Positions 30,010 to 64,000 of a stretch of 64,000 nucleotides of DNA are shown here, piece after piece. Origin of the DNA: a virus (Duplodnaviria; Caudoviricetes); the IMG/VR virus record IMGVR_UViG_3300022217_000003, positions 64,001 through 128,000 of that record. One strand, 5' to 3'. The notes below the pieces were generated by a model. That model was not told the DNA's origin, made no database searches, and saw only the letters and a program-made list of their open reading frames with translations. The translations under genes were made by a program, and so were the position numbers. Position 1 is the stretch's first letter, and each line of letters begins with the position of its first letter.

Positions 30010-30852
30010 TTAATCGTTTATTTTGACTATATGATACATGGGGTGAGACTTCATTACTTCTGGATGGTCTTTATCAAACTTTTTAACTGTAACAGGATCA
30101 CAATTAACCCCTTTTAGCCACTGGGGGTCAAACCAACCAGCCTCTTTTATTCTTTCTTCATACTTCTCTTTTGGGACTTCGGGTTCGTCCTGCCCTAAAA
30201 AAAACTCTATTTTTCTTTTCATCCTTTCAGATGTCCTGGCATGACCATAATGATAACATACCAACTCATCTTTATTAAATAATTTGAAAAACCCCTTCCA
30301 ATATTCCATAAAATATACATCATTAACAAATAGCGTGTGATCGCCTAATTTAGGTTCATAATCCTGATAATGCATATGTCCTTCAATATTTCTAAAGACC
30401 TTGGGCATTAAATATGAATTTTCAAAGGCATCATTAATAGATACATGCCAGAAGTCATGCCAAAAATGATGACTTCTGACCTGAAGACAGGATAATTTGG
30501 GGTTTTGTATATAAGTATCTCTAATATTTATTAAATGTTCTAATTTATATACTTCATCAGCGTCAATATAGTGTATCCAATCTGTCTGGCTCTCTTCCAA
30601 GTAAATATTTCGTTGATTATTCAAATGTTCAAACTTATTATGTATAAGTAGCACATCGTCTTCTCTGCCATACTGATGTATTTTATCTCTTATTATATCG
30701 AGTGTTGAATCTGTGCTTCCTCCATCAACCACAATTAAAGAATCGTAAATTTGCAATGGACCATCTATAGAATATTCTATCCATTTTTCTTCATCCTGTA
30801 CGATCATACAACCAGTTATAGTTTGTTTATTCACTTTTACCCTCCCCATCAA
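30010..30852 (-). CDS. Glycosyltransferase family 2
   Basis: CMIVQDEE, VVDGGSTDST, QRN, WIHYIDADE, YHYGH. Confidence 0.88.
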   Translation of the reverse strand: MMGRVKVNKQTITGCMIVQDEEKWIEYSIDGPLQIYDSLIVVDGGSTDSTLDIIRDKIHQYGREDDVLLIHNKFEHLNNQRNIYLEESQTDWIHYIDADEVYKLEHLINIRDTYIQNPKLSCLQVRSHHFWHDFWHVSINDAFENSYLMPKVFRNIEGHMHYQDYEPKLGDHTLFVNDVYFMEYWKGFFKLFNKDELVCYHYGHARTSERMKRKIEFFLGQDEPEVPKEKYEERIKEAGWFDPQWLKGVNCDPVTVKKFDKDHPEVMKSHPMYHIVKIND

Positions 30853-31018
30853 CTATGTCAAAATAATCTTCCCCGTCATCAATCATCCACTGTCTCGCTT
30901 GTTCTATAGTATAAATACTACCTTGAGTATAATAATCTATTATTCCCCATAAAACTTCTTTATCTGTCATTGAGGCAACCATATTTTCTAAATCTTCATA
31001 TGTTATTTTTTCTTTCAT
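30827..31018 (-). CDS. Small acidic hypothetical protein
   Basis: Start at ATG 31018 (ATGA overlap with the upstream stop). Confidence 0.55.
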   Translation of the reverse strand: MKEKITYEDLENMVASMTDKEVLWGIIDYYTQGSIYTIEQARQWMIDDGEDYFDIVDGEGKSE

Positions 31019-31305
31019 AAAACCTTTATCACCTTCCCATAAACTTGTTTTGTCCATCCGTTTACGTAATTGTGATTATTAGATATTTGACATCCTTTTT
31101 CATTATTCTTTGCCGTTACCAAGTGAGTTGTTATCATTCCTCTCACCTTACAGAATACAGCATCCCCAACCTTGGCTTTTTCCCATGTGCAAGGAGTTAA
31201 TAGTACTTTTTGCCCAGATTTTATTCTTGGAGTCATAGAATTTCCTTTACCCCTGTGTATTACATCTTCACCCCTTTGTAATTTTTCTATAACCATTCTT
31301 TTCAT
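31015..31305 (-). CDS. S24/S26-like peptidase domain protein (no TM)
   Basis: GNSMTPRIKSG, VGDAVF, THLV (Ser-His type), QVYGKV. Confidence 0.7.
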   Translation of the reverse strand: MKRMVIEKLQRGEDVIHRGKGNSMTPRIKSGQKVLLTPCTWEKAKVGDAVFCKVRGMITTHLVTAKNNEKGCQISNNHNYVNGWTKQVYGKVIKVL

Positions 31306-31427
31306 TTAATAAAACCACTCACAAATAGAGTTATTATTAACAAGATACACATAAACACCATAATATACCACAACCAATTAGGCACTCCATCGTAATAAAA
31401 TTGTGGTTTTAATATTGGTTTTACCAT
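31302..31427 (-). CDS. 41-aa single-TM protein (not in ORF track)
   Basis: GGGAG RBS; MVKPILKPQFYYDGVPNWLWYIMVFMCILLIITLFVSGFIK; ATGA overlap with the peptidase gene. Confidence 0.6.
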   Translation of the reverse strand: MVKPILKPQFYYDGVPNWLWYIMVFMCILLIITLFVSGFIK

Positions 31428-31428
31428 T

Positions 31429-33468
31429 CTATTCTCCCTTAACCATTAATTTAACTAACTCTTCAAACTTAACAGTTGGCTCCCATCCCAATATATTTTT
31501 TGCTTTAGACGCATCGCCTATTAATAAGTCAACTTCCGCTGGCCTAAAATGTTTTTCGTTAATCTCTACTAAAACTCTATTGGTTTTTTTATCAATTCCC
31601 TTTTCTAATATCCCCTTACCTTCCCATGTTATGTTTATATTAATCTCTCTAAATGCTAATTCTACAAATTTCCTAACAGAATGAGTCTCACCTGTTGCGA
31701 CAACATAATCATCTGGATTATCTTGCTGTAACATCAAATACATTGCATTGCAATATTCTGGAGCATATCCCCAATCTCTTTGAGCTTCAAGGTTCCCTAA
31801 TTGCAATGGCTCGCTACCATCGGAACGATTTATATAATCCGTTATTTTTTTTGTTACAAATGTTCCGCCCCTTCTAGGTGAATTACCAATAATAGATGTG
31901 CCAATACCTGCATTCAAACAACCCGATTCCGTTTCTATGTCATAAACATAATTACTAGGCTGTATTTTCATTATTTTTTTTATAATTTTAGGATCCCTTT
32001 TGAGATGCTGTCCCTTCTTTGTATTAATATCAGAATGTAAATTTATTTTATAAAATGGTTTACCATCTTGCATACGCACATTTGCATTAAAGGTTTGCTT
32101 CCGAATAGAATCTATGAGTAAAAGGACTCCTTGAGCTAAAAGAGGGGAGGTTGTTCCAAAGGACTTGTATTTATATACACATTTATCTTTTTTTAAACCA
32201 TCACCTAGATAATATCCTTCTAAAAATGCTTCTTTTATATCGTTGGTAGAATTAAATATTCTGCTTGGGATCTTTTTTAATTTTGTTTTTTTTTCATAAA
32301 GCCCTTGTCTAATATTTTTCACAATAAAGGAAGGAACACCATTAACATCTATATATTCTGATTTACCTCCAAATCCAGAAACACCGATTGTATATCTAAA
32401 GTTGTATGATCCGAATACCTTTTTGCATAAATCCATAAAGATTTGTCTAATATTTTTATCTATATTACTAAATCTCATTTTTCCACCTGATACATATCCA
32501 TCTGCCATTAACATTCCTAATAATTTAGCCTCTTCCTTTGTAATAGCGACATAGGTATTTAAAATAGGGTATTTACCAAATTTTATTTTATCATCAATGC
32601 ATAAATCCCTTGCTTCAATTTTTTCATCATTATTTTTTATATAGCTATGATTAGGTGTTGTAATAGATATTGAATTTCTAGTATTTATAACTAAGCCTAC
32701 CCTGTCATTTTCATTTAATGTCTTTATCTTCCTTCTTGTTATAGTTTTAATTCTTACAAATTCATCTCCATCCCAAACATATTTATTTTTACTTTCAATA
32801 TTTTGTGATAAAACAGAATTATCTTTTGTCGTATTTTTTCTCTCCGGTGCTAAATTCCTTATAAAATCTATATCAATATATCCATTTTCATCTTTTATTA
32901 TTATAGGCGTATCTGCATAAAAGCATTCATGATTAAAAAGTATCCCATTGGATATGTGCATTCCATAAGCTTCTCTATAATTTTTACATATCCAAAAAGA
33001 ATACAGCTTTGCTACTCCATAGGGGCTACGCGGATAAAAAGGGGTGTCTTCCTTCTGTGGAATTTCCTGAACTTTTCCATATAATTCACTGGTTGTCGCA
33101 TTATATATTCTAACCTTTTTCTCTAACCCTAATATTCTAACAGCTTCCAATAATCTCAATGTCCCAATCGCATCAACGTTTGCGGTATATTCGGGGATCT
33201 CAAATGAGACGGCTACATGGCTCTGCGCCGAAAGATTATATATTTCATCGGGACTAACCCTCCTTATAGTATTAATCAAATTAGCGGAATCTGTTACATC
33301 GCCATAATATAAATTTACCTTTGATAACGCATGATCTATTCTACCTGTATTAAAAGATGAACTCCTCCTTACGATGCCGTGAACTTCATATCCTTTTTCC
33401 AATAACAAATCCATTAAGTGTGACCCATCCATGCCGGTTATCCCCGTTATCAAAGCAACTTTTTTCAT
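31429..33468 (-). CDS. gmd: GDP-mannose 4,6-dehydratase with intein
   Basis: [45 protein letters not shown]|SPRRG split by the intein, [16 protein letters not shown]. Start at TAATG overlap. Confidence 0.95.
31882..32925 (-). mobile_element. Intein (348 aa) with LAGLIDADG homing endonuclease
   Basis: Begins CFYADTPI; block B TTPNH; LLGMLMADG and [10 protein letters not shown]; block F YVYDIETE; ends IIGN before Ser+1. Confidence 0.93.
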
Positions 33469-34613
33469 TAAATAACTCTCCTTATTACATCGCAAACAAA
33501 TTGTATATCATCTTTAGTTAGATTGGGATGGTTAGGAACATAGAATCCGCAATTATCTATATGTTGTGCCATGTTATCGTAAACAATACAATTTGCTTTT
33601 TTAATAAATGGTTGGTTTCCCATATTCCCACATACGAGCGGTCTATTTTCTATATTATTTTTATTTAATGCTTTTATTATTTTATCTCTTTTGGTATGAA
33701 CAATGGGATATGCGAAACTTGATATTGTGTCGCCTTTATGTCCCCTTAATGGACTACACATATTCAGATATTCTTGATATAAATTAAAGTTATCTTGACG
33801 CTTTTGAACTATATCATCCAATTTATCCAATTGCCTAAGCCCTAAAAATGCGCCTATCTCAGTATTTCTAATATTAAATCCAGGATAATAGAACTTATAA
33901 AGAGACTCAAATTCACTAACCTTATACTTTTTTCTCAATTTCTTTTGATCTTTAGATGGCAGATCCCTACTCCATCCATGATTTCGTATCATTCTTAATA
34001 TGTTGTACAACTCTTTATCATCTGTACACACAGCTCCGCCTTCTACGCAACTCATTTGATGACTCATATACATAGAATGACTACTCATTAATCCAAAATT
34101 ACCTAATTTTTTTAATTTATACTGACTACCGATTGACTCACAATTGTCTTCAAGAAGTATTACATCATATTCCTTGCATAGATGTATTATTTCATCATAT
34201 TGAGGAGAAAATCCTAATATATTTACTGCCAATAGCACTGCGGGTTTATATTTTTTGAATATTTTACTTAAACAATCTAGATCAACACTGAAATTATTCA
34301 ATTCAACATCGCAAATAATTGTTTGAAATCCTAATTGTATCCCAGGAGAGGCAGAGGTTGCCCAACTTATTGCTGGTATTACTATTTTATTATTTTTCAA
34401 CCTACCTGATAATTTTAAAGCATATATCATTGCCAAATTAGCTGAACTTCCTGAATTAACAAATACACAGTGCTTACATCCTATATAATCAGAAAACTTT
34501 TGTTCAAATTCTTTTACTAATTCGCCCTGAGATAGCCTTGGATTGGTCAATATCCATTCCGCCAAAGTCCTTCGGTCTCTTTTATCAAAATTATCCGATG
34601 CTAATTTAATCAC
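33468..34613 (-). CDS. colD: GDP-4-keto-6-deoxymannose 3-dehydratase (ColD-type, DegT family)
   Basis: [17 protein letters not shown], His at the PLP-Lys position ([14 protein letters not shown]), RNHGWSRDL. Confidence 0.75.
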
Positions 34614-35538
34614 TAATTAATTCCTTATAATACTCAACTGTTTTTTCTATACCTTCTTCTAAATTAGTCGTTGCCTTCCAACCCAATTTATTTATTTTAG
34701 AAACATCAAGACATTTTAATTTCATCCCATCTGGCTTTGAGGTATCATATTTAAACTTACCTTTCCATTCTATAACCCTTGCCACCGTTTCCGCAAGCTC
34801 AGTAATGCTTGCATCCTTACCTGTCCCAACATTTAAAAATGTTTTTGATTTGATATTATTCATTGCCCATACCATACAATCGGCAAGGTCTTCAACGTAT
34901 AAAAATTCTCTCCTGGGCTCTCCTGTCCCCCAGATAGTTATTACTTTTTTATTACTTTTTTTTGCATCATATATCTTTTTTATAAGGGACTGCAATACAT
35001 GGGAGTCCGTAGGGTCAAAGTGGTCATATATGCCATATAGATTAGTGGGGGATAAAATTATAAACTTATCCCCTAATGTTTTATTCGCATATTCACATAG
35101 TTTCGTACCGCATATCTTTGAAAGGGCATATCCTTCATTGGTGGGCTCCACAGGTGCTTCTAATAAATATGATTCCTTTAGCGGTTGTTTGTAATCTCTG
35201 GGGAACATACACGCAGAGGCAAGGTACATAGTTTTTTCAACATTATATTTTATAGCACAATTGATAATATTGTTTTGTATCATAAGATTTTCATATAAAA
35301 ACTTATATGGTTCATTTATATTCGCCTGTATACCCCCTACAATTGAGGCACAATGATATATATACATGGGTCTATGGCAACGGATAAAAGATTCTGTATC
35401 TTCCTGGCTTGTAAGATCTAATTGATTATGTTCTCTTGTTATAATATTATCATATCCGGATTCCTTTAGTTTCTTCACAAGATTCCTTCCAACTAACCCC
35501 GTTGCACCCGATACATATATCAGATCTTCTTTTTTCAT
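34606..35538 (-). CDS. fcl: GDP-L-fucose/colitose synthase (Fcl/ColC)
   Basis: GATGLVG, VGGIQAN, EPTNEGYALSK, PTNLYG..DHF, WGTGEPRREFLYVED, KPDGM. Confidence 0.9.
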   Translation of the reverse strand: MKKEDLIYVSGATGLVGRNLVKKLKESGYDNIITREHNQLDLTSQEDTESFIRCHRPMYIYHCASIVGGIQANINEPYKFLYENLMIQNNIINCAIKYNVEKTMYLASACMFPRDYKQPLKESYLLEAPVEPTNEGYALSKICGTKLCEYANKTLGDKFIILSPTNLYGIYDHFDPTDSHVLQSLIKKIYDAKKSNKKVITIWGTGEPRREFLYVEDLADCMVWAMNNIKSKTFLNVGTGKDASITELAETVARVIEWKGKFKYDTSKPDGMKLKCLDVSKINKLGWKATTNLEEGIEKTVEYYKELISD

Positions 35539-36569
35539 AACCTATCCAACATAATACATTTATTATTAGAAACATATTTTTTTTCTGTTTCTATTGAAGC
35601 GCATTCATTTATAATATTCATAAATTCTTCTTTTGTAATAGGTTCTTCTTCCCACATACAGGCCTTCTTTGAGAATATTCCACGTTCGACCCTATCATTC
35701 CATGTTCCCTGATATACAGGATGCATTTTATCAGTTAGTATTACTGGGAAATTGGATCTGGTATGACTTGAAATAGCACCACCCATTCCGTCAGCTATTA
35801 AGCCCTTTGATAAATAAAGTAAGCATAATAATTCACTATATGTCATGTCCTCGCTATTAATTTCATGATAATTTCCGTGTTCTATACCTGTAGGAAAACA
35901 GGGGAATCCAATATTAACCACGCCATAACCATTATTTAGCATTTCTTCAAAATGGGACTTAATTTCCATTCGTGTGTTATGCATAGGGGCCTTAAAACTA
36001 AAATTTCTTGTTATAGCGAGAAAAGTTTTGTCTGTAAATAAATGTTTATATTGGCTATCTATTTTTTCTTTGTCTTCTTGGAAAGGATATATAAAATTAC
36101 CTTCCTTTATACACCTTCCTATATTTCCAAATTCAATATAAAACTGCCCCCACATGTCCTTATTATATTCTGATTCGGTATTTTGACTAAAAATTTTACA
36201 ATCAGGGGGCAATGCATCTAATATTTCTTGACATGGATAAGGCCCATCATGGAAATAATGGAAATCGCATTCCAGATAATGTTTATTAATATATTCAATA
36301 GCCATTTTCATAAAACCAGATGTTACATACCCAGGGACATCCCTTTCGTTTTGCTCTAGAATATATGGATAATTTGCCTTCGCCCTTGCTAAAAATTCTG
36401 TCGAAACACAAAGCATTTCATCTGCATATGTTATTAATGACGCAGCCACATAAGGGACAACTGCAACAACTTTATCATATTCTTTTTTTAATTTATAGAG
36501 ATATGTGCAATCGAATCGGTTGAATGCGTGAAATTCCCCGAAGGGACCAAAGGCTACGGCGATTTTCAT
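35535..36569 (-). CDS. Possible glycosyltransferase (GT-B-like), uncertain
   Basis: Soluble alpha/beta protein between neuB and fcl; no firm motif. Confidence 0.3.
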   Translation of the reverse strand: MKIAVAFGPFGEFHAFNRFDCTYLYKLKKEYDKVVAVVPYVAASLITYADEMLCVSTEFLARAKANYPYILEQNERDVPGYVTSGFMKMAIEYINKHYLECDFHYFHDGPYPCQEILDALPPDCKIFSQNTESEYNKDMWGQFYIEFGNIGRCIKEGNFIYPFQEDKEKIDSQYKHLFTDKTFLAITRNFSFKAPMHNTRMEIKSHFEEMLNNGYGVVNIGFPCFPTGIEHGNYHEINSEDMTYSELLCLLYLSKGLIADGMGGAISSHTRSNFPVILTDKMHPVYQGTWNDRVERGIFSKKACMWEEEPITKEEFMNIINECASIETEKKYVSNNKCIMLDRL

Positions 36570-36573
36570 TTAA

Positions 36574-37395
36574 TTACTTCCTCAACTTTTTTTTTATTGG
36601 AATTTCGCTATCCAAACACCTTATCACCCCATCGCCCCATGACTTTTTGTAACTATTTAATATGTCTTTTATTTTTAAAACCCCTGGTATTTCTATTGAA
36701 GCGGATTGATCAGACCCATACATTGCACGATCCAATGTAATATGATACTCCGCCATCTCACAGCCAAGAGCGTACGCCATTGTAATAAAATGTATCCCAG
36801 GAGAATGATTGGAAAATCCTATCTTATATTTATGACCATAAAAATCCTGTAATGTTTTTATTCTATTCATGTTCATGTCTTCGTCTGACGTGGGATATGT
36901 TGAAGTTGTAGATAAAATATATTCCACACTATCCCCAAGTATTCCCAATGCGTTATTTAATTCTTCGGGTGATGTCATCCCCGTAGAAAGAATAATTGGC
37001 TTACCCGTTTCCTTTATCTTTTCCAACAATTCAATATCAGTATTAGATGCTGATGCAACCTTTATAAATGGTATATCATATTGCATTAAAAAATCGACAG
37101 ATGCGCAATCCCATGGGCTCGCATACCACTTAATCCCTTTTTCTTTACAGTAACGATCTATCTCATCATAATCTTCCTTAGAATATTCCAATTGATTCTT
37201 TAAGTCCCTATTTGTTTTGCCATAAGGTGATTCCCTTAGTTTATCTAATTCTGCTTCAGTATAAACATTTTCTATAGTTCGCTTTTGAAACTTCACTGCA
37301 AAGCACCCCCCCAATACAGCTACGTCAATTAACTTTTTAGTTAAGTCTATATTCCCTAATCCATTTATTCCTATTTCAGCTACTAATTTCATCAA
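36574..37395 (-). CDS. neuB: NeuB-family nonulosonate synthase, short form
   Basis: AEIGIN, AVKFQKR, IKVAS, IILSTGM, STYP, GFSNH, EYHITLDR; no C-terminal SAF domain. Confidence 0.88.
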   Translation of the reverse strand: MMKLVAEIGINGLGNIDLTKKLIDVAVLGGCFAVKFQKRTIENVYTEAELDKLRESPYGKTNRDLKNQLEYSKEDYDEIDRYCKEKGIKWYASPWDCASVDFLMQYDIPFIKVASASNTDIELLEKIKETGKPIILSTGMTSPEELNNALGILGDSVEYILSTTSTYPTSDEDMNMNRIKTLQDFYGHKYKIGFSNHSPGIHFITMAYALGCEMAEYHITLDRAMYGSDQSASIEIPGVLKIKDILNSYKKSWGDGVIRCLDSEIPIKKKLRK

Positions 37396-37983: not shown

Positions 37984-38124
37984 TTATTTCTCCTTCTTCT
38001 CTAAATATTCAACCATTATCTGTCGAATTATTTCACCGCAACTTCTTTTTTCTTTCTTGGCTTGCTCTTTAAACTCATGTATGATATTTTTATCTACCCT
38101 TACATTAAACGTAGGTTTTTTCAT
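37984..38124 (-). CDS. 46-aa ribbon-helix-helix DNA-binding protein (not in ORF track)
   Basis: MKKPTFNVRVDKNIIHEFKEQAKKEKRSCGEIIRQIMVEYL, Arc/CopG pattern. Confidence 0.75.
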   Translation of the reverse strand: MKKPTFNVRVDKNIIHEFKEQAKKEKRSCGEIIRQIMVEYLEKKEK

Positions 38125-40867: not shown

Positions 40868-40869
40868 AT

Positions 40870-45936: not shown

Positions 45937-45937
45937 T

Positions 45938-55800: not shown

Positions 55801-56630
55801 TTCCTCAAACCTCTCAATTGTTTTTTTAGATTAGAAATATTACCCAAACCAGATTTCCTATCCCACTCATAGGCCTTTTCTGTAATATCTACATACTCCT
55901 GCTTTGACATATTTAACATCCTATCAACCAATTGTATATCACTAACAAATTCCCCATAGTCTATGTATAAATCTTTAGGAACAATATCCCCTATGTTATA
56001 TGCTCCATAATAAACAGCTACTGTCTTTGCCTTCATAGTATCTCTAATTTTTTCAGTTACCCAATCCCAACTATATAAAGGATGATAACAATTCTCAAAA
56101 GCAAGGTTAAACTTATATTCATTTATTTTTTTTAATTTAGGAAAACTGCTTGGGAAGGTTTCCTGTGTTCCTACTTCGCCTATAGGGCCTCTATATAAAT
56201 TCCCATATGGTTTTATTCCATAACAATCTGTTTCTAATCCGCCAATCATATTTATGGTTTCCATAATTTGAAGTCTTGTGTGTGCTATATCTCCAGATAT
56301 GCCGCTATGTTCTCTGTGCCTACATGCCAGCATAATGCCATTTATTTTTTCTTCAAATGGCTTAAATGAGTCTAATTTATAATTATTATTAAATAAGGGG
56401 AATCCGTTAATTAATACGATATTAAATTTGTCTTTATACATATCGTATAATTTTGAATTCCATGTTATAATACCTTTATAATGTTTCCAATATTCCAGAT
56501 TGTAGTATTGGGGAAAGACGGTATACCCATCAATTAAAAATAGATACTTATTGGGATCGACTATGCCATCACAATCAAATGAAATAATATCCTTAAACTC
56601 ATTTTTCAGCTTTACATATTCGTCACTCAA
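55797..56630 (-). CDS. GT10 (alpha-1,3/4-fucosyltransferase-like)
   Basis: YKFNLAFEN...DWVTEKI.D...TVAVYYGA, the GT10 donor-binding motif. Confidence 0.8.
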   Translation of the reverse strand: MSDEYVKLKNEFKDIISFDCDGIVDPNKYLFLIDGYTVFPQYYNLEYWKHYKGIITWNSKLYDMYKDKFNIVLINGFPLFNNNYKLDSFKPFEEKINGIMLACRHREHSGISGDIAHTRLQIMETINMIGGLETDCYGIKPYGNLYRGPIGEVGTQETFPSSFPKLKKINEYKFNLAFENCYHPLYSWDWVTEKIRDTMKAKTVAVYYGAYNIGDIVPKDLYIDYGEFVSDIQLVDRMLNMSKQEYVDITEKAYEWDRKSGLGNISNLKKQLRGLRK

Positions 56631-57216
56631 TTACGAATCCCCATTTCCTTCTAAATAATTCTTTATTACGTTTCCCAAATTCGGGCTCTCTTTTCATTTC
56701 GTTCTTGTGCTTTAATCTAACTAAATTAGTCAGATATACTCTGCCTGCAGGATTAGCTTGTTTTAATTTCATAGTAAATTCAATATCCTCCATGCCCCAT
56801 CCATGATATTCTTCATTAAATATTAAATCATTTTTTCTATACGCCATGCAGGCCCCTGGAACATACTCCACGGGAACATAGTCATCTACTACATTACTTG
56901 ATTTGCTAACCGTATTTTGTATAGAGCCATCTATATTTAATAGCCTTGCTCCCATCATTAATACGGAGGGATCGCGCAATCTGCGAATCATTGTTTCATC
57001 CCAGCTTTCTGGAAAACCATAAAGGTCATCGTCAATGAAAATTACAAAATCTCCTTTACATTGTCGCAGGCAATCATTTCTATTTTTTGCCACACCTCCA
57101 CTGGGGTTAGATACTAAAATAAATTCATAATCCCCTCTTGCATTACTTAGAGCTTCATCTATTCTGTCTTGGACTTCCGTATCCGGTTTAATGGTAATCA
57201 TACATATAGATATCAT
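56623..57216 (-). CDS. Glycosyltransferase family 2
   Basis: AKNRN, IFIDDD, GACM, FNEEYHGWGMED. Confidence 0.82.
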   Translation of the reverse strand: MISICMITIKPDTEVQDRIDEALSNARGDYEFILVSNPSGGVAKNRNDCLRQCKGDFVIFIDDDLYGFPESWDETMIRRLRDPSVLMMGARLLNIDGSIQNTVSKSSNVVDDYVPVEYVPGACMAYRKNDLIFNEEYHGWGMEDIEFTMKLKQANPAGRVYLTNLVRLKHKNEMKREPEFGKRNKELFRRKWGFVIE

Positions 57217-58311
57217 TTAAAGAGTTCCTTCCATACAAATTTCCTTTACTAAATTAATAGCCCCCAATACAGCCTCATCCATATCCATATATTTATACGA
57301 CCCAAGCCTTCCCCCAAAGTATATTATATTTTTATATCGCTTGGCATAATTTAAATATAATTTATATAGGTCATTGTTTTTTTTATCATTAATTGGGTAG
57401 AATGGATCTCCTTTGTCTTGGGGGTATTCTTTTGTTATAATCGTGTGATCAACATCTATAGGCTCAAAATGTTTATGTTCAAGTATTCTTGTATAAGAAA
57501 CATTTTCATCTGTATAATTTATAACCGCATTGCCCTGAAAATCTTTAATATTAATTTTTTCTTCTTCAAACGACAATGATCTATATTCCAGTTTACCAAA
57601 TTTATAATTAAAGAATTCATCTATTGGTCCTGTAAATATAACATTATTATATAAATATCTTTCGTCTTTAACCTCATCCCACGATGTTTTTAATTTTATA
57701 TCAGACCCCCAAAGCAAGTTATGAAACAAGGTTGTATAACCGCCAAGTGGTATTCCCTGAAACTTTCCCCGCAAATAAGTATCATCAAAATTCAATCTAA
57801 TAGGAACCCTCTTAATAATATCTATTGGTAAATCCCTGGGTTCTCTACCCCATTGTTTTTTAGTATACCCATAAAAAAATATTTTATATATTTGCTCTCC
57901 CACCTGAGATAAGATCCACTCTTCTAAGTTATTGGGATTTTGGATATCACATTTTGTGATTTCCAATTTTTCCCTTGCTTCCTCTGGTGTGGTAACTCCC
58001 CACAATTGATATAGGGTCATAAGATTAATTGGGAATGAATATATTTTATTCTTATAACAAGCCTTGACCCTGTTTAAAAATAAGTTTAAACCACTATACT
58101 TATTTATATAATCCCAGATCCGCTTATTGTCTGTGTGAAAAATGTGTCCTCCGTATTTATGAATAGCAATGCCATCTACTTCCTCTGTATAACAGTTTCC
58201 GCCAACGTGATCTCTTTTATCTATTACAAGGCATTTATATCCCCTATCATATAACTCCCTCGCACATACACTCCCGAAAATTCCTGCTCCAACAATTAAA
58301 AAATCATACAT
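57217..58311 (-). CDS. glf: UDP-galactopyranose mutase
   Basis: MYDFLIVGAG, HVGGNCY, HKYGGHIFHT, YTKKQWG, LEYRSL, TRILEHKHF, GRLGSYKYMDMD. Confidence 0.95.
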   Translation of the reverse strand: MYDFLIVGAGIFGSVCARELYDRGYKCLVIDKRDHVGGNCYTEEVDGIAIHKYGGHIFHTDNKRIWDYINKYSGLNLFLNRVKACYKNKIYSFPINLMTLYQLWGVTTPEEAREKLEITKCDIQNPNNLEEWILSQVGEQIYKIFFYGYTKKQWGREPRDLPIDIIKRVPIRLNFDDTYLRGKFQGIPLGGYTTLFHNLLWGSDIKLKTSWDEVKDERYLYNNVIFTGPIDEFFNYKFGKLEYRSLSFEEEKINIKDFQGNAVINYTDENVSYTRILEHKHFEPIDVDHTIITKEYPQDKGDPFYPINDKKNNDLYKLYLNYAKRYKNIIYFGGRLGSYKYMDMDEAVLGAINLVKEICMEGTL

Positions 58312-58312
58312 T

Positions 58313-59572
58313 TTAATGCCACACCTCAAGAGCTTTCGCATTATATTCATCTATTTCTTTTGCAACGATATGTTTTATTTCATTATATCTATCTTTGGGT
58401 ATCTTGGGACAAAAATAATTGTATGGGGATTGGTGTGAGAATAGGGCGGAATCATAATTATCATTTATTAATCCCTCTTCAAGACATTCGGTATATAATT
58501 CAGTTCCCTTATATGGTGTAAAGAAACTTAATGTTATCCTGAACGGATTTAGTGACTTAATAAACTTCATTGTTGTCAATATATCTTCTTCTGTTTCTTC
58601 CGGGAATCCTATAATACAGTAAGCCTTCCACTGTATTTTATTCTTGTTTAAAATATCGGCGGCTTTTAAGAAGGTCTCTGTCTTCTCTCCCTTATTTATA
58701 TATTCCAATATGCGGTTAACCCCACTTTCAAGCCCTATGCTCATTTGCTTACACCCGGACTTTTTCATGCACTTAACCATTTCATCTGTTATCACATCAG
58801 CCCTTGTATCACACCGCCAACTGGATCTTAAATTATATTTATCACAAAATTCAAGCAACTTCTTCTTATTTAATGTAAATGTTTCGTCCCAGAATGTAAA
58901 AAAATCTGATTTAAATGCATCTTCAATATATTTCATTTCTCTAATTATTCTATCCACGCTTTTACATGTTACTTTTCTCCCCCAAATATTTGATGAGGAA
59001 CAAAATCTGCAGTTAAAGGGACACCCCCTGGACGACATCACATGGGCATATCCATTGGGAGAATACTTATCTAATAACATATCAAAATCAGGAAATGGCA
59101 ATTCGTCCAAGTCCTGTAACCTGCCCCCATTTGACTCGTATTCCCCTCTAAATACCTCTACATCAGAGGGGTATTCTTCGGGGCTAATGGTGGGATGCGC
59201 CCCACCCACGAACACAGGTATACCAAATTCTTGTTTTGCTATCTTGTAAATTGACATAAATGACTTATATTTTACGTTTAAAACCGTAACTCCTATTTTA
59301 TCAGGTCTCTCTTTTGATATAGTGGCCCTTAATTCATTCCATATGCTATGATTTAGGTCACTTATTCCGTTTATAAACTTATTATAGTTTTCTTGCCTGC
59401 CATCATATCCCTCATAATGTGTCTTTGCGCCTACTTCCATATTCTTTATCTTGACATCATACCCTTCACTTTTCAACTTTGACCCTACTGCTAATAGGGA
59501 TAATGGCACGTAGTCTTGTTGTAGCGTCACGAACCTGTAAAACGGTGGGTTTATTAATAAAACTTTTTTCAC
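58313..59572 (-). CDS. Cobalamin-dependent radical SAM enzyme
   Basis: VLLINPP, PLSL, GGAHPT, SRGCPFNCRFC, GLESG, IIGFPEET, PYKGTELY. Confidence 0.88.
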   Translation of the reverse strand: MKKVLLINPPFYRFVTLQQDYVPLSLLAVGSKLKSEGYDVKIKNMEVGAKTHYEGYDGRQENYNKFINGISDLNHSIWNELRATISKERPDKIGVTVLNVKYKSFMSIYKIAKQEFGIPVFVGGAHPTISPEEYPSDVEVFRGEYESNGGRLQDLDELPFPDFDMLLDKYSPNGYAHVMSSRGCPFNCRFCSSSNIWGRKVTCKSVDRIIREMKYIEDAFKSDFFTFWDETFTLNKKKLLEFCDKYNLRSSWRCDTRADVITDEMVKCMKKSGCKQMSIGLESGVNRILEYINKGEKTETFLKAADILNKNKIQWKAYCIIGFPEETEEDILTTMKFIKSLNPFRITLSFFTPYKGTELYTECLEEGLINDNYDSALFSHQSPYNYFCPKIPKDRYNEIKHIVAKEIDEYNAKALEVWH

Positions 59573-60444
59573 AGATTCGTAGCCAACTCTTTTAATTCTT
59601 TTAAAAAAGTTGGTTCGTTTTGTTTATAAAAATCATATGCCTTCTCGGTCATTTCAATATACCGATCCCTTGGAAAGTTAATCAAATAATCGGATAGTTC
59701 TGCATCATTTGAAAAATCCCTATAGTCTATATATAATTCCTTGGGGATTCTTTGTTCTATGTTATAGCAACCATAATAAACAGCCACTGTTTTTGCCGAG
59801 AACACATCCCATATCTTTTCTGTTATATAATCCCAACTCCAAAATTCATGGTAAGAATTTTCACAGACCAAAGAAAATCTATATTCATTCACCTTTGAAA
59901 TCTTATCATATCCATATTTATGTAGATTGACATATTGATGATCTGGGTCTCGCTGTCCTAATATGCCTTTATACATTTCACCGCAATTCAAACCGCCATA
60001 TACATGCTTTACCAAACTTTGTATTCCGTTCATTATCTGCAATCGCTTATAGCCAATTGCACCCTCATTGCAATCAAAAAAGGTTTTGAGATTACTTACA
60101 ACACATATTCCATTTATCTTTTCTTCATAAGACTTATAACTATCTAATACTATATCTTCTCTATACATATCGTGACATAGGCAGAAATCTTTAACAAGAT
60201 GTATGTTCAGTTCGTTCTTATGAGCTTCATAAAATTTAGAGTTCCATGTTACCACGCACTTATATTGTTTTAAAAGATCTATATTATATCCATTGGGGGA
60301 TATAGAATATACTTCTCCTAAGTGAGCAATCTTATCTTTTTTATTTTCATCTCCCACCCCTGGGCACAGTATAAAGTTAGGATTTAATTGTTTCCATTCT
60401 CCTGGTATATCTCTTTGTCCGCTAATTGATGTGGGATTTATCAT
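59569..60444 (-). CDS. GT10 (fucosyltransferase-like), paralog of 55797-56630
   Basis: YRFSLVCENS...DYITEKIWD...KTVAVYYG. Confidence 0.8.
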   Translation of the reverse strand: MINPTSISGQRDIPGEWKQLNPNFILCPGVGDENKKDKIAHLGEVYSISPNGYNIDLLKQYKCVVTWNSKFYEAHKNELNIHLVKDFCLCHDMYREDIVLDSYKSYEEKINGICVVSNLKTFFDCNEGAIGYKRLQIMNGIQSLVKHVYGGLNCGEMYKGILGQRDPDHQYVNLHKYGYDKISKVNEYRFSLVCENSYHEFWSWDYITEKIWDVFSAKTVAVYYGCYNIEQRIPKELYIDYRDFSNDAELSDYLINFPRDRYIEMTEKAYDFYKQNEPTFLKELKELATNL

Positions 60445-61130
60445 TCCCTTGTAGCCCCTTCAAAGTCATTATAGACCTGCGATGTTATGCTCTCTCCACT
60501 CTTTTGCCATATTAATTTTGGTTTAACAACAACGCAATTGAAATAAGGCTGTATACGACTTAAATAAAAATTATCTAACTCTGCCCCATATAATATACCT
60601 TCGTCTAATATTTTATCATATAAAGTATTTTTAACTGCATATGCATGACATGATAATAGATTATTACCCTTGACCACGTTTTTTGCGATTGGCAATACAT
60701 GTGCCCCCTCTCTAATACTACTTCCTAAATATAGCATATCCCATCCAACCGTAGTCTGTTGTTCTATCGCAATTAATTGATTTGATACCTTTTCAAATAA
60801 TTCATTAACATCATCTCTAATACCAATATCATCTTCTAATATAAGAACATTATCATATTTTCTTTCTTTGGCCAATTCGACACATCGAACATGTGCTTTA
60901 TTCGCACCACATATTCCCAACTTATAATAATCATGTATTTTATTTGCACTGACTAGGTTTTGATAATGTTTTTCTGGTACATCATCAAGGTTTTTAAGTC
61001 TTATGCCGGGAACTCTTTCATAATTTTTAATATTGGCTTTCTCTAATTCTTCAACAACGTCCTTCCACCTATCTATACTTTCATCTAAATTTATAACAAA
61101 TATCTTATCAAAATAAGTATCTATATTCAT
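60441..61130 (-). CDS. Glycosyltransferase family 25
   Basis: IFVINLDESIDRW, G...AH, VLILEDD, WDMLYLG, HAYAV. Confidence 0.88.
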   Translation of the reverse strand: MNIDTYFDKIFVINLDESIDRWKDVVEELEKANIKNYERVPGIRLKNLDDVPEKHYQNLVSANKIHDYYKLGICGANKAHVRCVELAKERKYDNVLILEDDIGIRDDVNELFEKVSNQLIAIEQQTTVGWDMLYLGSSIREGAHVLPIAKNVVKGNNLLSCHAYAVKNTLYDKILDEGILYGAELDNFYLSRIQPYFNCVVVKPKLIWQKSGESITSQVYNDFEGATRE

Positions 61131-62086
61131 TCCATTTCCTTTTCAAAAAATTTATACGCCGAGGATATAATCTGTTTTAAACCATGTGTGGGCTTCCACC
61201 CCAGAACTTCTTTTGCTTTATCATAAGATGCTATTCTGATAGGGGGATCACCTTCTCTTTTTTTTGATTTCTTTGTCGCAACCTTTTTTATATTGTTAAC
61301 TTCATTAATGATTTCCATTACGCTATATCCAATACCTGTCCCCAAATTAAATACATTGATTTTATTATCCTTCTGTATATAATCCATTGCATCAATATGC
61401 GCCTGACAAATATCATTAACATGAATATAATCCCTTACACATGTACCGTCTATCGTGTCGTAATCCATACCATATATATTAACTGGTTTATTTGTTAATG
61501 CTGCTTTGATTACATTTGGAATCAGATGTGTTTCAGGATCATGCAGTTCTCCTGTCCGTAACTTTTTGTCACTACCTGCTACATTAAAATACCTAAAAAT
61601 AATATAATTAATATCATAATACAATTTATAATATTGCAGTATCATCTCGGCCATATATTTAGTATACCCATAGGGATTCATTGGCCTGATAAAAGAATGT
61701 TCTTGTATAGCACTGTCACAATCATCATATACGCAACATGTGGATGAAAATATAATATTTTTGATATCATAACAACTCATTGTATATAATAATGTATCAA
61801 CGCCCCTGACATTATTATACATATATTTATCGGGGTCTTTGAATGATTCTGATACAGTGGCATGTGCCGCCAAATGGATTACCAGATCTATTTTTGTATT
61901 ACTAAATATAGAATGGAGAATATCTGAACTATAATAAGTGCCTTTAAAAAAAACATCGTTAAATACGTGCTCTTTTTTTCCCTGACAAAAATTATCAATG
62001 CCTATAGTATAATGCCCTTGCTTCTTAAGCATTAAAGAAAGGTGGCTACCTATATATCCCGCACTACCTGTTATTAATATGTTCAT
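61127..62086 (-). CDS. galE: UDP-glucose 4-epimerase
   Basis: GSAGYIGSH, HLAA, YGYTK, RYFNVAG, PETHLIP, DGTCVRDYIHV. Confidence 0.93.
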   Translation of the reverse strand: MNILITGSAGYIGSHLSLMLKKQGHYTIGIDNFCQGKKEHVFNDVFFKGTYYSSDILHSIFSNTKIDLVIHLAAHATVSESFKDPDKYMYNNVRGVDTLLYTMSCYDIKNIIFSSTCCVYDDCDSAIQEHSFIRPMNPYGYTKYMAEMILQYYKLYYDINYIIFRYFNVAGSDKKLRTGELHDPETHLIPNVIKAALTNKPVNIYGMDYDTIDGTCVRDYIHVNDICQAHIDAMDYIQKDNKINVFNLGTGIGYSVMEIINEVNNIKKVATKKSKKREGDPPIRIASYDKAKEVLGWKPTHGLKQIISSAYKFFEKEME

Positions 62087-62567
62087 ATATTATTTCTTCC
62101 ACCTTATTAATACAATACCCAGGTGCCCATGTCTTTGTATCCAATATTAAATCGGGCTTTTTCGGTATTTGATATGGGCTATCTATGCCTGTAAAATTTT
62201 TTATTTTATTATCCCTTGCTTTTTTATACATCCCCTTAACATCTCTTTTTTCACACACTTCCAAATCTGCCTTACAGTATATTATATATGTATTAGGAAC
62301 TATATTTCTTATCTGTTCTCTGTATTTTTCAAAGGGCGATATAAAATCTGTTATTAAATTTATGTTTTCCGCATTAAGAATTTTGCATAGCTCAATTATT
62401 CTGCGCATATTTTCCCGCCTATCTTCAACGGAAAACCCCAGATCTTTACACAAGCCCTTTCTAATATTATCTCCATTTAACAATAAAAATTCTGGATATT
62501 TTTCTTTTAGCTTATTGGCTATGGTTGATTTACCCGAACAGGGCAATCCAGTAAACCATAAAATCAT
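62064..62567 (-). CDS. cysC: Adenylyl-sulfate (APS) kinase
   Basis: WFTGLPCSGKSTIA, GDNIRKGL..DLGFS..DR.EN, FISP, RDVKGMYKKA, FTGIDSPY. Confidence 0.93.
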   Translation of the reverse strand: MILWFTGLPCSGKSTIANKLKEKYPEFLLLNGDNIRKGLCKDLGFSVEDRRENMRRIIELCKILNAENINLITDFISPFEKYREQIRNIVPNTYIIYCKADLEVCEKRDVKGMYKKARDNKIKNFTGIDSPYQIPKKPDLILDTKTWAPGYCINKVEEIIYEHINNR

Positions 62568-62568
62568 T

Positions 62569-63432
62569 TTATACCCCCTTGATCCCATTGGATAAAATTT
62601 TAAAAAAAACATCTAGCGACTCATTTATTTTTTGTATTACAACCCCTCTATCATATGTCCAAAACCAGCTATAACTCGCATTGCCGACATCATTATTTAC
62701 CTCCGGTTTACACCCACACAACATGGCTTCTAAAACAGTTCTTCCCGCTGATTCAACCGCCCCATTAGTTGGGAGTAAATAACACCCGTGTGCTTTTGAA
62801 TAATATTGTCTTACAACATCCGGGGGCTGATGACCTATATATCTTACGTTATCACATTCTTTTATTGTCTCAATACCTATATCTCCGTTATCCGTTGTTC
62901 CCATAAATACATATTTATTCTCAGGATTTTTTTTTGCTATATCTAATATTTCAATAATCCCCTTATTTGAATGGATCAACCCCACATATATATAGAGATT
63001 CTTTTGTCTTACAAATCCGTCCTGCCTTTTGAAAAAATTATAATCTATTGGAACCACCACGTATTCATAATTATCAATTACTAAATGTTTTTGTACACTG
63101 GGTAATGCGTCTTGTATATGAGTCCTATGTCTTGGCGAAAAAAACAGAAGCTTATACGCATTGGGAATTAACCATTCTCTTATCCACTCCTTTTCAGGCA
63201 AAACCAATTCTATGCTATGTTCAATATATATATATTTCATGGGCTTTAAATGTTTTTTTAATTTATCTTCTGTACCTTTGTATATCATTCCAATAATATA
63301 AAACTCAATTGATTCATCAATGACATTAAATCCAACTTCAAACCCACGTTTTTTGGCTTGATTGTAATAACATCTCATGGTTAAGTCTGCGCCATATCCA
63401 ACCGTTGAATCATTTAAAAAGCTTATTTTCAT
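62569..63432 (-). CDS. Glycosyltransferase, GT4-like
   Basis: YVG.I...KG, ESAGRTVLEAMLCG. Confidence 0.8.
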   Translation of the reverse strand: MKISFLNDSTVGYGADLTMRCYYNQAKKRGFEVGFNVIDESIEFYIIGMIYKGTEDKLKKHLKPMKYIYIEHSIELVLPEKEWIREWLIPNAYKLLFFSPRHRTHIQDALPSVQKHLVIDNYEYVVVPIDYNFFKRQDGFVRQKNLYIYVGLIHSNKGIIEILDIAKKNPENKYVFMGTTDNGDIGIETIKECDNVRYIGHQPPDVVRQYYSKAHGCYLLPTNGAVESAGRTVLEAMLCGCKPEVNNDVGNASYSWFWTYDRGVVIQKINESLDVFFKILSNGIKGV

Positions 63433-63596
63433 ACTTTTTTCTTCCTAACCATTGCTTGAGCATAACAAATGAAAGAGTTAATAGGTGTATTATAAATACA
63501 TATCCCACCCTGTGGCTCCCAGCCTTTTTCTATATAGCCACTTATGGTCTCTAATAAAATATCCCTATCACGACTTTCTATTATTGTATATTCCAT
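63429..63596 (-). CDS. 55-aa DUF1737-like protein (not in ORF track)
   Basis: MEYTIIES...KGWEPQGGI...YAQAMVRK; ATGA overlap with the downstream GT gene. Confidence 0.65.
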   Translation of the reverse strand: MEYTIIESRDRDILLETISGYIEKGWEPQGGICIYNTPINSFICYAQAMVRKKKV

Positions 63597-63644
63597 TTAT
63601 CTACCCCTTGTTAAAAAGCTATATTCTTATATATAAAAATATAT

Positions 63645-63720
63645 GGAGACCGCAGTTTAGTTACCCGACACGTTCTCGGAGCTTCTTACAGAACTACTAA
63701 ACTAAACCGCTGAGTCTCCC
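63645..63720 (-). ncRNA. Candidate small structured RNA (~76 nt)
   Basis: 18-bp outer stem with a 2-nt bulge and G-U pairs on the minus strand, plus inner GUUCU/AGAAC stem; TATAAT just upstream. Confidence 0.4.
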
Positions 63721-63743
63721 AATAACATTCATTATAGTCCATA

Positions 63744-64000
63744 TTATAACTTATCCAATTCCTGTTTTATTTTATTGGCAATAACAGAGGCAGAAAAGTT
63801 TTGGATCAAATCCTGTCTGCCCTTTCTTGCCTTCTCTTTTGCTTCCCCATAATTTTCATATACTCTTCTCATGAGCTGTCTTAAATGTGCCTCTGACGGC
63901 TCTGCCCATTTTTGGTGACGATAATTCGGGGTTATCTTTTCCATTTCTTCCCCGATTTCTTTATAATCCAATACATCTATTAAATAGGCATTATCATTAT
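63744..64000 (-). CDS. Glycosyltransferase (GT4-like) C-terminus, truncated by window edge
   Basis: Frame open to base 64000 (NDNAYLID...WAEPS..HLRQLMRRVYEN..EA). Confidence 0.6.
   Translation of the reverse strand, partial: NDNAYLIDVLDYKEIGEEMEKITPNYRHQKWAEPSEAHLRQLMRRVYENYGEAKEKARKGRQDLIQNFSASVIANKIKQELDKL

Follow-up and report, generated by a model that had tools for sequence, protein, structure and literature searches.

Large glycan islands near tail genes and glycosylation of the virion are both already known kinds of system in bacteriophages. The host-recognition clusters (HRCs) of pelagimyophages have a mean length of 44.6 kb and contain many glycosyltransferase (GT), lipopolysaccharide (LPS) and radical S-adenosylmethionine (SAM) genes (Zaragoza-Solas et al. 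2020, PMC7029224). The capsid and the tail tube of mycobacteriophages are glycosylated by phage transferases (Freeman et al. 2023, PMC10527164, as cited in PMC12619734). Here we describe a glycan gene block in the IMG/VR virus record IMGVR_UViG_3300022217_000003. The stretch of 64,000 nt that was analysed, called the window, covers bases 64001-128000 of the 175,779-bp record, and its position 1 is base 64,001. Judged from its genes, the block is a glycan assembly line that belongs to the phage, works entirely in the cytoplasm and makes its own sugar donors. An earlier reading of the window, made from the sequence only, had placed the block above the known phage examples in scale, which was overstated in view of the mean length of the pelagimyophage clusters.

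The block and its place in the genome

The block extends from window position 30010 to 64877 (genome 128877), which is 877 nt beyond the window end. Its 42 open reading frames (ORFs) occupy 34,868 nt, all on the minus strand, and 39 of the 41 junctions between them are overlaps or gaps of 12 nt or less. Downstream, it continues directly into fibre, neck and tail genes (sheath, tube and baseplate). The sequence-only reading, which had described at least 34 kb and about 40 co-oriented, coupled genes running into the neck and tail genes, is borne out on these points. At the upstream edge, an HNH/NUMOD4 homing endonuclease with an HNH_3 match (L008:2895-3419; genome 128895-129419) adjoins the first GT4 gene. 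L006, L008 and L001 are slices of the genome, in which L006:2339 is genome 42339, L008:1744 is window 63744 and L001:8363 is genome 136363. L010, L014, L015, L017, L018, L020, L023, L024, L026 and L034 are other contigs used for comparison.

All 258 ORFs of the 176-kb contig were scanned for transmembrane helices by Kyte-Doolittle hydropathy, and no polytopic membrane protein of 200 amino acids (aa) or more was found among them. Therefore, Wzx, Wzy, an ABC permease, a priming transferase, a ligase and an oligosaccharyltransferase are absent from the 176 kb. The same absence of Wzx, Wzy, an ABC exporter and a priming transferase had been noted earlier. Within the block itself, hydrophobic stretches are no more than marginal, apart from a single-helix peptide of 41 aa. 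Compared with an O-antigen or capsule locus, nucleotide-sugar genes clustered with GTs are present, and the initiating transferase, flippase/polymerase, ABC transporter and ligase are missing.

The gene content nevertheless resembles such a bacterial locus, as it would if host DNA had been misassembled into the contig or a host locus lay next to a prophage. Such an origin is barely conceivable, because base composition, codon usage and strand bias of the block match the genome and an independent assembly contains part of it. The guanine-cytosine (GC) content is 33.1% in the block and 34.3% in the rest of the genome, the cosine between their codon frequencies is 0.988, and strand and GC skew are uniform over the whole contig. 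Phage genes flank the block on both sides, and no cellular gene block was found in the contig. Selfish elements typical of this phage are seen inside the block (an intein in Gmd) and just upstream of it (the HNH endonuclease). The independent Logan contig L034 (SRR7134660, 94,936 bp) holds part of the block; the stretch is Glf-GT2-GT10-GT-A-radical-SAM-GT2. The gene for the 272-aa GT is recorded on a 175,132-bp contig as well, which may be a second assembly. Flanking host wzx/wzy/waaL genes or a chimeric assembly, of which the sequence-only reading had warned, are excluded for the 176 kb.

Enzyme classes were assigned by Pfam, NCBIfam and PDB sequence searches of the block proteins. The predicted features are as follows, in window coordinates with strand and E value (E) or other basis.

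30010-30852 (-), GT2 glycosyltransferase, 280 aa, final block gene before the neck/fibre genes (PF00535, E 3.8e-12)
30827-31057 (-), 76-aa ORF (ORF list)
31015-31305 (-), 96-aa S24-peptidase-like fragment, probably not a glycan gene (PF00717, E 1e-4, just under cut-off)
31302-31427 (-), 41-aa peptide with one hydrophobic helix (ORF translation)
31429-33495 (-), guanosine diphosphate (GDP)-mannose 4,6-dehydratase (Gmd) with LAGLIDADG intein (PF16363, E 1.7e-136, two stretches)
33468-34613 (-), ColD-type GDP-4-keto-6-deoxymannose 3-dehydratase (ColD/WbdK 2GMS, E 7e-67)
34606-35538 (-), GDP-fucose synthase or ColC-like epimerase-reductase (NF047922, E 7e-108)
35535-36569 (-), GT-B-like transferase, 344 aa (no Pfam match; ESM Atlas look-alikes GT9/GT28-like)
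36574-37395 (-), NeuB-type nonulosonate synthase 1, without C-terminal SAF domain (PF03102, E 2.4e-59)
37376-37978 (-), class I methyltransferase-like protein, weak (PF13489, E 3.9e-5, below cut-off)
37984-38124 (-), 46-aa ribbon-helix-helix-like ORF (translation; assigned by eye only)
38152-38532 (-), cupin, sugar isomerase/epimerase-like, module member (PF01050, PF07883; 50% identical to L017 homologue)
38519-39469 (-), GT-B (GT1/GT4-like) transferase, 316 aa (no Pfam match; Atlas template modelling (TM) score 0.80-0.87 to GT1-type clusters)
39405-40217 (-), SPASM/twitch radical SAM enzyme, 270 aa, module member (PF13186, E 1.4e-9)
40214-40867 (-), SAM methyltransferase, module member (PF13489, E 1.5e-18)
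40870-41256 (-), VOC/glyoxalase-fold protein, module member (PF00903, E 8.5e-10)
41246-42442 (-), class III (omega) aminotransferase, module member (PF00202, E 1.2e-78)
42396-43091 (-), cytidine monophosphate (CMP)-nonulosonate synthetase 1 (PF02348, E 6.5e-22; PseF model 103 bits, below cut-off)
43103-44485 (-), radical SAM enzyme with B12-binding domain, AprD4-like, module member (PF04055, PF02310; AprD4 6FD2, E 1.5e-16)
44482-45981 (-), second B12-domain radical SAM enzyme, paralogue 35% identical (family search)
45938-46672 (-), DUF115/MptE-like minimal sialyltransferase-fold enzyme, presumed CMP-nonulosonate transferase (PF01973, above cut-off)
46669-46962 (-), conserved 97-aa protein with weak HAD-like N-terminus (PF08282, E 0.002; 50% identical to L015 homologue)
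46959-47831 (-), NeuB-type synthase 2 (PF03102, E 1.4e-58)
47828-48367 (-), CMP-sugar synthetase 2, short, 179 aa (PF02348, E 1.1e-11)
48364-48948 (-), sulfotransferase (PF03567, E 6e-15)
48945-49706 (-), 253-aa protein (no match in Pfam and PDB searches)
49703-51160 (-), GT2 domain fused to FkbM methyltransferase (PF00535, PF05050)
51133-51882 (-), GT-A transferase with Glyco_transf_7C signature (PF02709, E 5e-6)
51883-53478 (-), 531-aa GT2 (domain 1-245) with second domain of 280 aa (PF00535, E 2.6e-24)
53471-54985 (-), B12-domain radical SAM enzyme (family search)
54982-55800 (-), GT-A fold transferase, 272 aa (no Pfam match; AlphaFold2 (AF2) pLDDT 90.8 and Foldseek)
55797-56630 (-), GT10, fucosyltransferase family (PF00852, E 1e-11)
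56623-57216 (-), GT2 transferase (PF00535, E 4e-10)
57217-58350 (-), uridine diphosphate (UDP)-galactopyranose mutase (Glf) (PF03275, E 3.9e-70)
58313-59572 (-), B12-domain radical SAM enzyme (family search)
59569-60444 (-), GT10 paralogue, 39% identical to 55797-56630 (family search)
60441-61130 (-), GT25 transferase (PF01755, E 8e-10)
61127-62086 (-), UDP-glucose 4-epimerase GalE (TIGR01179, 331 bits, above 262-bit cut-off)
62064-62612 (-), adenosine 5'-phosphosulfate kinase (CysC), for synthesis of 3'-phosphoadenosine 5'-phosphosulfate (PAPS) (PF01583, E 1e-50)
62569-63432 (-), GT4 transferase (PF00534, E 1e-9)
63429-63596 (-), 55-aa ORF (ORF list)
63744-64000 (-), GT4 transferase, 377 aa, first block gene, continuing to 64877 (L008:1744-2877) (PF00534, E 2.5e-15; PF20706, E 8.5e-8)

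The 46-aa ribbon-helix-helix-like ORF fills the sole sizeable gap in the block and may be a small regulator. The 41-aa peptide and the 96-aa S24-like fragment sit between Gmd and the last GT2, with no obvious link to glycan synthesis. The 531-aa GT2 protein is a fusion; in an exhaustive search, each of its two domains also exists stand-alone.

The donors can be named at the family level. Gmd, the ColD-type protein and the Fcl/ColC-like enzyme would supply GDP-colitose and/or GDP-fucose. GalE and Glf would supply UDP-galactose and UDP-galactofuranose (UDP-Galf), two NeuB proteins with two cytidylyltransferases would supply two CMP-activated nonulosonic acids, and CysC would supply PAPS. The sequence-only reading had proposed this set (Gmd/ColD/Fcl, GalE/Glf, two NeuB and two NeuA), and every member was matched in the searches. 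Its other enzymes were recovered as well: five radical SAM enzymes, of which four have the B12-binding domain and one is of the SPASM type, CysC with the sulfotransferase, and three methyltransferase domains, one of them weak and below the Pfam cut-off.

The ColD-type protein belongs to the DegT family and is much closer to 2GMS than to perosamine synthase (E 1e-29). In the alignment to 2GMS, it has His at the position of the Schiff-base Lys of aminotransferases; from the family motif, we take this His to be the catalytic residue. The product may be fucose or colitose, as the third enzyme is below the GDP-fucose synthase cut-off (361 bits on NF047922, against 500 bits). The intein of Gmd is about 347 aa long (about 31882-32922 on the minus strand), with LAGLIDADG_3 and Intein_splicing matches. 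It is inserted at the conserved GILFNHE / SPRRG motif, where Gmd breaks after NHE and resumes with SPRRG. The intein starts with Cys, and its last residues are Gly-Asn, with Ser next to them; it lacks the penultimate His that inteins usually have.

The contig is an uncultured large myovirus, phage-G-like and distant kin of Bacillus phage G, as indicated by its sheath and capsid, which are nearest to phage G, its PHROGs tail genes and its head protease. The record is classed as linear, with a CheckV completeness of 77%. Its GC content is 34%, and 225 of the 258 ORFs are on the minus strand. Among 50,697 phage records, there was no near-identical DNA match to 8.6-kb and 20-kb queries. The tail sheath (window 23398-24726) is 30% identical to that of phage G, its best relative, and the 3' exon of the major capsid gene (genome 136363-136935) is 56% identical. 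PHROGs matches downstream of the block include sheath, tube, chaperone, a tail protein bearing a lytic transglycosylase, and baseplate wedge proteins. The head maturation protease and the major capsid gene lie upstream. The virion genes were earlier said to abut the block; this holds for the tail genes, and the capsid gene is about 7.5 kb further upstream, so it has no direct contact with the block. The capsid gene and the head protease were found beyond 64 kb, where structural genes had been expected, and the Pfam terminase model had no match. Pfam models for sheath, HK97 capsid and terminase gave no match in the genome despite the presence of sheath and capsid; these models are too insensitive for the phage-G-like lineage. 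A tblastn search with a 718-aa protein of the head region gave no match, and the sheath protein as a single query found no relative in IMG/VR. Ribosome-binding sites of the AGGAGG type and one clear promoter, TTGACT-17-TATATT, argue for a host that uses classical sigma-70 and Shine-Dalgarno signals. No tRNA genes were found in the window.

The neighbouring genes downstream of the block are as follows.

22835-24726 (-), tail sheath and tail tube (sheath phrog_2839, E 3e-32; tube phrog_985)
27427-29933 (-), three genes just downstream of the block (90 aa; 252 aa; 490 aa)

The 252-aa protein has a weak match to concanavalin A (ConA)-like lectins. The 490-aa protein (window 27427-28899, minus strand) is fibre-like; short segments of it recur at 50-90% identity in hundreds of metagenomic proteins that are unrelated elsewhere, which points to a mosaic fibre with exchangeable modules. 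Contig L009, which has a homologue of this protein, was considered as a test of block insertion and dropped, because it has just two genes in common with the phage and is uninformative. Genes for a UvsX-like recombinase and a ParA-like ATPase (window 3219-4310 and 6468-7193, minus strand) lie just past the tail-fibre region. Also encoded by the phage are an HD-domain enzyme of the CCA-adding/poly(A) polymerase family and a Thg1-like tRNA-His guanylyltransferase (L006:315-1706 and L006:5344-6033); the CCA enzyme is the one backbone gene common to this phage and the other contigs that carry the nonulosonate module described below. A LAGLIDADG_2 endonuclease ORF lies between the 3' part of the major capsid gene (L001:8363-9928; genome 136363-137928) and coding pieces upstream of it. 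The C5-cytosine DNA methylase region (L006:2339-5088; genome 42339-45088) consists of a 173-aa N-terminal half, an HNH endonuclease ORF and a 471-aa ORF with a terminal GNAVVP motif; a mobile element seems to have split the methylase gene.

Transferases and the nonulosonate module

The block contains about 14 transferases: ten genes with Pfam signatures of GT2, GT4, GT10, GT25 or GT-7C, two GT-B-like proteins recognised through the ESM Atlas, one GT-A protein recognised by fold, and one DUF115 enzyme. The earlier estimate of about 13 GT-like genes agrees with this count of 13 plus the DUF115 gene. PDB sequence searches with the 344-, 316-, 253- and 272-aa proteins and the DUF115 enzyme gave no match. 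Three of the four proteins without a family match are transferases by fold or Atlas look-alikes, the 253-aa protein being the exception. The nearest Atlas clusters of the 344-aa GT, which are GT9/GT28-like, are 92-98% viral; over the DUF115 enzyme, the 344-aa GT and one cluster of the 316-aa GT, the range is 92-100%. The model of the 272-aa GT-A protein matched GnT-I, POMGnT1 and SpsA in Foldseek (E 2e-8 to 1e-6), and its DDE motif is conserved.

There is one DUF115/MptE-like gene in the block (PF01973, 38.4 bits against a cut-off of 34.6), not the two Maf-like proteins reported from the sequence alone, and it encodes the catalytic domain only. Its model (AF2 pLDDT 93.7) is most similar to the central domain of Maf, 5MU5 (Foldseek E 4.7e-6), and its nearest Atlas cluster (TM score 0.87) is 98% viral. 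A DUF115 pattern scan of 185,579 prokaryotic species genomes, one genome per species, found nine weak loci, all in metagenome-assembled genomes (MAGs); an 11-sequence alignment was used, as a 43-sequence version was too diverse. As a single query against IMG/VR, the protein found no relative.

Searches with the B12-domain radical SAM protein (as IMG/VR query) and the DUF115 proteins identified a nine-gene module in at least three other large phage-like contigs. The order in the fullest copy (L017/L020) is DUF115, cytidylyltransferase, class III aminotransferase, methyltransferase, VOC, B12-domain radical SAM, SPASM radical SAM, cupin and NeuB. Most module genes are observed in L010, an IMG/VR contig of 187 kb with 29% GC. 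They are also observed in the 264-kb contig L015/L023/L024, recovered from two samples (42% GC), where L015 has no aminotransferase, VOC or B12 radical SAM gene. L017, L020 and L018 are contigs of 47-141 kb with 26-27% GC, one of which was binned as 'Nanoarchaeia'. The recurrence of the module and transferases at GC contents of 26%, 29%, 33% and 42% suggests different hosts. The flanks of these contigs are of the phage type: they encode a CCA-adding enzyme whose gene is interrupted by a GIY-YIG ORF, as well as a 5'-3' deoxyribonucleotidase and members of PHROG families. No membrane protein was found in five phage-type copies of the module, and no relative of the sheath was found in L010. A NUDIX hydrolase gene follows the glycan cluster in L020 (6838-7278, directly behind NeuB) and L015 (18852-19292); it is absent from the window block.

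The B12 radical SAM protein of the module is 57-64% identical in L010, L014, L017 and L026, and NeuB 1 shows 50-64% identity with the module NeuB of other phage contigs. The order of NeuB and CMP-synthetase adjoining DUF115 is kept in L010, L015 and L017. Homologues of the window GT2, GT-7C-like, FkbM, GT10 and 272-aa GT-A proteins are encoded upstream of the module in L015 and L017; L010 has only the GT2 type. The closest relative is L014, a 6-kb fragment with 62-81% identity. It lacks the segment of NeuA2, NeuB2, the conserved 97-aa protein and sulfotransferase, which indicates that the second NeuB/NeuA pair, the 97-aa protein and the sulfotransferase are probably an accessory cassette.

The gene families of the module appear to be almost virus-only. 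A cellular look-alike is found in an Omnitrophota MAG (L026; JAQUMX010000002.1, a 96-kb contig), which has seven of the nine module genes like the phage; no cupin homologue was detected there. Protein identity between L026 and the window ranges from 29% to 60%, the closest being the B12-domain radical SAM protein (60%). The DUF115 protein of L026 is longer (325 aa, against 244 aa in the phage). The locus also contains GT10, GT11, GT2, Fcl-like and Gmd genes. It differs in having, directly upstream, an MsbA-like ABC exporter (ABC_membrane and ABC_tran, about six transmembrane helices), which the phage copies do not have.

The product of the module is inferred to be a deoxy-amino-methyl nonulosonate, because both radical SAM chemistries yield keto-sugars, the class III aminotransferase could aminate them, and a methyltransferase follows. 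AprD4 is the radical SAM 1,2-diol dehydratase of apramycin biosynthesis, and BtrN is a radical SAM sugar dehydrogenase. BtrN was the sole solved match of the SPASM protein, a weak one (E 0.003) of the same length. The AprD4-like dehydratase and the BtrN-like dehydrogenase would introduce keto groups on the nonulosonate, and the aminotransferase would aminate them. The VOC and cupin proteins may isomerise the intermediate and the methyltransferase may cap it. The cytidylyltransferase would then activate the sugar and the DUF115 enzyme would transfer it. Whichever the acceptor is, this combination of radical SAM enzymes and aminotransferase suggests new nonulosonate chemistry. The compact module, common to several large phage-like contigs, could be expressed and assayed.

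Candidate acceptors of the glycan

Our tentative preference, at a little under an even chance, is that the acceptor is a phage or virion protein. It would be encoded by the phage, most likely a surface-exposed virion protein such as a fibre, sheath, capsid or decoration protein, and it would be glycosylated in the cytoplasm before or during particle assembly. The progeny would be coated with an acidic glycan bearing sulfate and methyl groups, which would serve as a shield or adhesin. No phage copy has membrane machinery, in contrast to the exporter in the cellular look-alike. The genes of the block are translationally coupled, share the codon usage of the phage and lead straight into fibre, neck and tail genes. 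The closest solved fold to the DUF115 model is Maf, a protein O-nonulosonate transferase. The module and transferase families appear to be typical of viruses, and the occurrence of one multi-enzyme set across hosts is better explained by a phage-supplied acceptor than by hypervariable host glycans. The glycosylated capsid and tail tube of mycobacteriophages may serve as a precedent.

Several results weigh against a virion protein. A search of the virion proteins for Ser/Thr-rich tracts found one mildly Ser/Thr-rich protein of 135 aa (genome 144092-144499), and no such tract was found in the sheath, tube, fibre or capsid exon. The head-to-tail interval of phage G contains unrelated cargo (a sigma factor, a helicase, ribonucleotide reductase and tRNAs), suggesting that this interval is a general cargo site. 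In the phage-like L020 (141 kb), nucleotide-metabolism genes, not virion genes, come after the module, so the placement beside virion genes, which the sequence-only reading had proposed to survey in relatives, is not conserved there. Scans for sigma-70 promoters and terminators over 44-64 kb gave results at shuffle level. The DUF115 enzyme, with 244 aa, lacks the flanking domains of Maf (TM score by target 0.22), and CstII/CstI fit its model nearly as well as Maf (Foldseek E 3e-5 to 5e-4). Nearby bacterial DUF115 clusters bear signatures of WaaZ, the 3-deoxy-D-manno-octulosonic acid (Kdo) III transferase, or of glycerophosphotransferases (teichoic-acid fusions). GT9-like, GT25, GT10 and GT11 types are typical of LPS or lipooligosaccharide (LOS) work. 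As a separate observation, a late-promoter motif, AACCAC-N-TATA, was noticed by eye in four upstream regions and rejected, as it occurs genome-wide 5 times on the minus strand and 8 times on the plus strand.

Because the DUF115 fold fits both Maf and CstII and its relatives are of the WaaZ or glycerophosphotransferase type, protein, LPS core and wall polymers are all possible. The range of the family covers these three, and the acceptor is not revealed by the transferase.

Remodelling of the host envelope is the next reading, and we regard it as possible, at well under an even chance. Soluble phage transferases would build or extend a glycan on a host lipid-linked acceptor at the inner membrane face. 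The acceptor would be lipid A-core or LOS, an undecaprenyl diphosphate (Und-PP)-sugar, or a precursor of teichoic acid or S-layer glycan, and host MsbA, Wzx or an ABC transporter would export it. Masked receptors would block superinfection or keep progeny off debris. LOS-type assembly on lipid A-core requires soluble transferases and host MsbA only, with no Wzx, Wzy or priming transferase. This weakens the step from the missing Wzx, Wzy and priming enzyme to a protein acceptor. In the virion-glycosylation proposal of the sequence-only reading, the phage-embedded, donor-self-sufficient and soluble nature of the pathway stands, and that step is weaker than stated.

The LPS-type GT families of the block, the similarity of the DUF115 fold to CstII, a cytoplasmic LOS sialyltransferase, and the WaaZ and glycerophosphotransferase signatures of its relatives are all consistent with an envelope acceptor. 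The sole cellular-type look-alike lies directly behind an MsbA-like exporter, together with GT10, GT11, GT2, Fcl and Gmd. The HRCs of pelagi- and cyanomyophages, rich in GT, LPS and radical SAM genes, have likewise been interpreted in print as acting on the host envelope (PMC7029224). However, the approximately 14 transferases, partly conserved across phages with 26-42% GC, would have to fit very different host acceptors, and their families are almost virus-only. The contig encodes no membrane helper, and the position beside late-type structural genes and coupling with them are ill-suited to a function most useful early. If the envelope is the acceptor, the block would be an extreme case of surface reprogramming by a lytic phage.

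It is quite improbable that the end point is a non-virion phage protein, a host cytoplasmic protein (flagellin or pilin, for instance), or a soluble or lipid product without a dedicated export system. The closest solved fold is a flagellin-modifying enzyme, and nothing in the sequence fixes the acceptor. On the other hand, no gene resembling flagellin or pilin was recognised in the contig, and no flagellin-family match was found among about 90 proteins in Pfam, PHROGs and NCBIfam, where no search aimed at flagellin was made. The accessory domains of Maf are missing; its N- and C-terminal domains are presumably those implicated in flagellin binding. A late-type operon of 35 kb is costly, which favours a product retained by the phage or at the cell surface.

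DNA as the acceptor is highly improbable. The transferases would put oligosaccharides on hydroxymethyl-pyrimidines as protection against restriction. A C5-cytosine DNA methylase is present (PF00145, E 2.7e-59 for the N-terminal half), split by the HNH ORF, and the first GT4 of the block matches the 'GT4 in conflict systems' model (PF20706). Phage transferases can add mono- to trisaccharides to 5-hydroxymethylcytosine (Pyle et al. 2024, as cited in PMC12619734). However, neither a TET/JBP dioxygenase (PF12851) nor a thymidylate-synthase-type hydroxymethylase (PF00303) was matched in the 176 kb, an estimated 77% of the genome. The block is far from the DNA-metabolism genes, and nonulosonates, sulfate and about 14 transferases go far beyond known DNA glycans.

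Returning to the virion, a more specific proposal, which we consider rather unlikely as a whole, is a virus-specific, host-portable pathway that places a glycan of radical-SAM-derived deoxy-amino-methyl nonulosonate with colitose/fucose, Galf and sulfate on virion proteins. If true, this would be a first for bacteriophages: a sialic-acid-like, sulfated glycan coat, the work of a minimal DUF115 family of protein sialyltransferases essentially confined to phages. Natural phage particles may then carry such coats, with a bearing on adsorption, immune recognition, particle stickiness and marine and sediment carbon chemistry.

Comparison with known systems

The block resembles the HRCs of pelagi- and cyanomyophages, which are variable islands of 34-45 kb beside tail-fibre genes in large uncultured myophages (PMC7029224). 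Those islands, whose function is unproven, are likewise rich in GTs, deoxy-sugar/LPS-type genes and radical SAM cassettes (PMC7029224). Variability is also seen here, as the close relative L014 lacks the NeuA2-NeuB2-sulfotransferase segment. The HRC phages are T4-like, whereas this phage is phage-G-like in sheath and capsid. The HRCs include fibres, with GT8 reported as the commonest GT (PMC7029224), whereas the block is purely enzymatic. Beyond the HRC repertoire, it has two nonulosonate pathways, genes for colitose, Galf and sulfation, and the nine-gene tailoring module.

The GDP-colitose genes resemble those of E. coli O55 and its relatives in having Gmd, a ColD in which His takes the place of Lys, and an adjacent Fcl/ColC-type reductase-epimerase. 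In contrast to that pathway, the phage Gmd is split by an intein and the third enzyme scores under the GDP-fucose synthase cut-off. The DUF115 enzyme shares the catalytic fold of Maf (PDB 5MU5) and of CstII/CstI (GT42), which act in the cytoplasm, and the NeuB and CMP-synthetase neighbours. It differs in its identity of only 10-16%, its length (244 aa, against 632 residues in Maf) and its virus-dominated subfamily.

Mycobacteriophages are similar in having soluble phage transferases near structural genes, and their virion proteins are glycosylated in the cytoplasm. They reportedly have few transferases and no donor pathways, and the C-terminal regions of capsid and tail tube are said to be the acceptors. 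In contrast, there are about 40 genes here and no recognisable acceptor or Ser/Thr-rich tail. Giant eukaryotic viruses (chloroviruses with capsid glycans, Mimivirus with fibril glycans) have their own donor synthesis and transferases and decorate the virion without the membrane glycosylation machinery of the host. Their hosts are eukaryotic and their enzymes are unrelated to those of the block, and we know of no combination of nonulosonate, radical SAM and sulfation genes in them.

In the literature searched, there was no report of the nine-gene radical SAM/aminotransferase nonulosonate module, of a minimal virus-specific DUF115 transferase, or of colitose, Galf and sulfation combined with both in one phage. 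Large glycan islands are common in uncultured phages, none with an assigned product or target, and among them this block is unusually complete.

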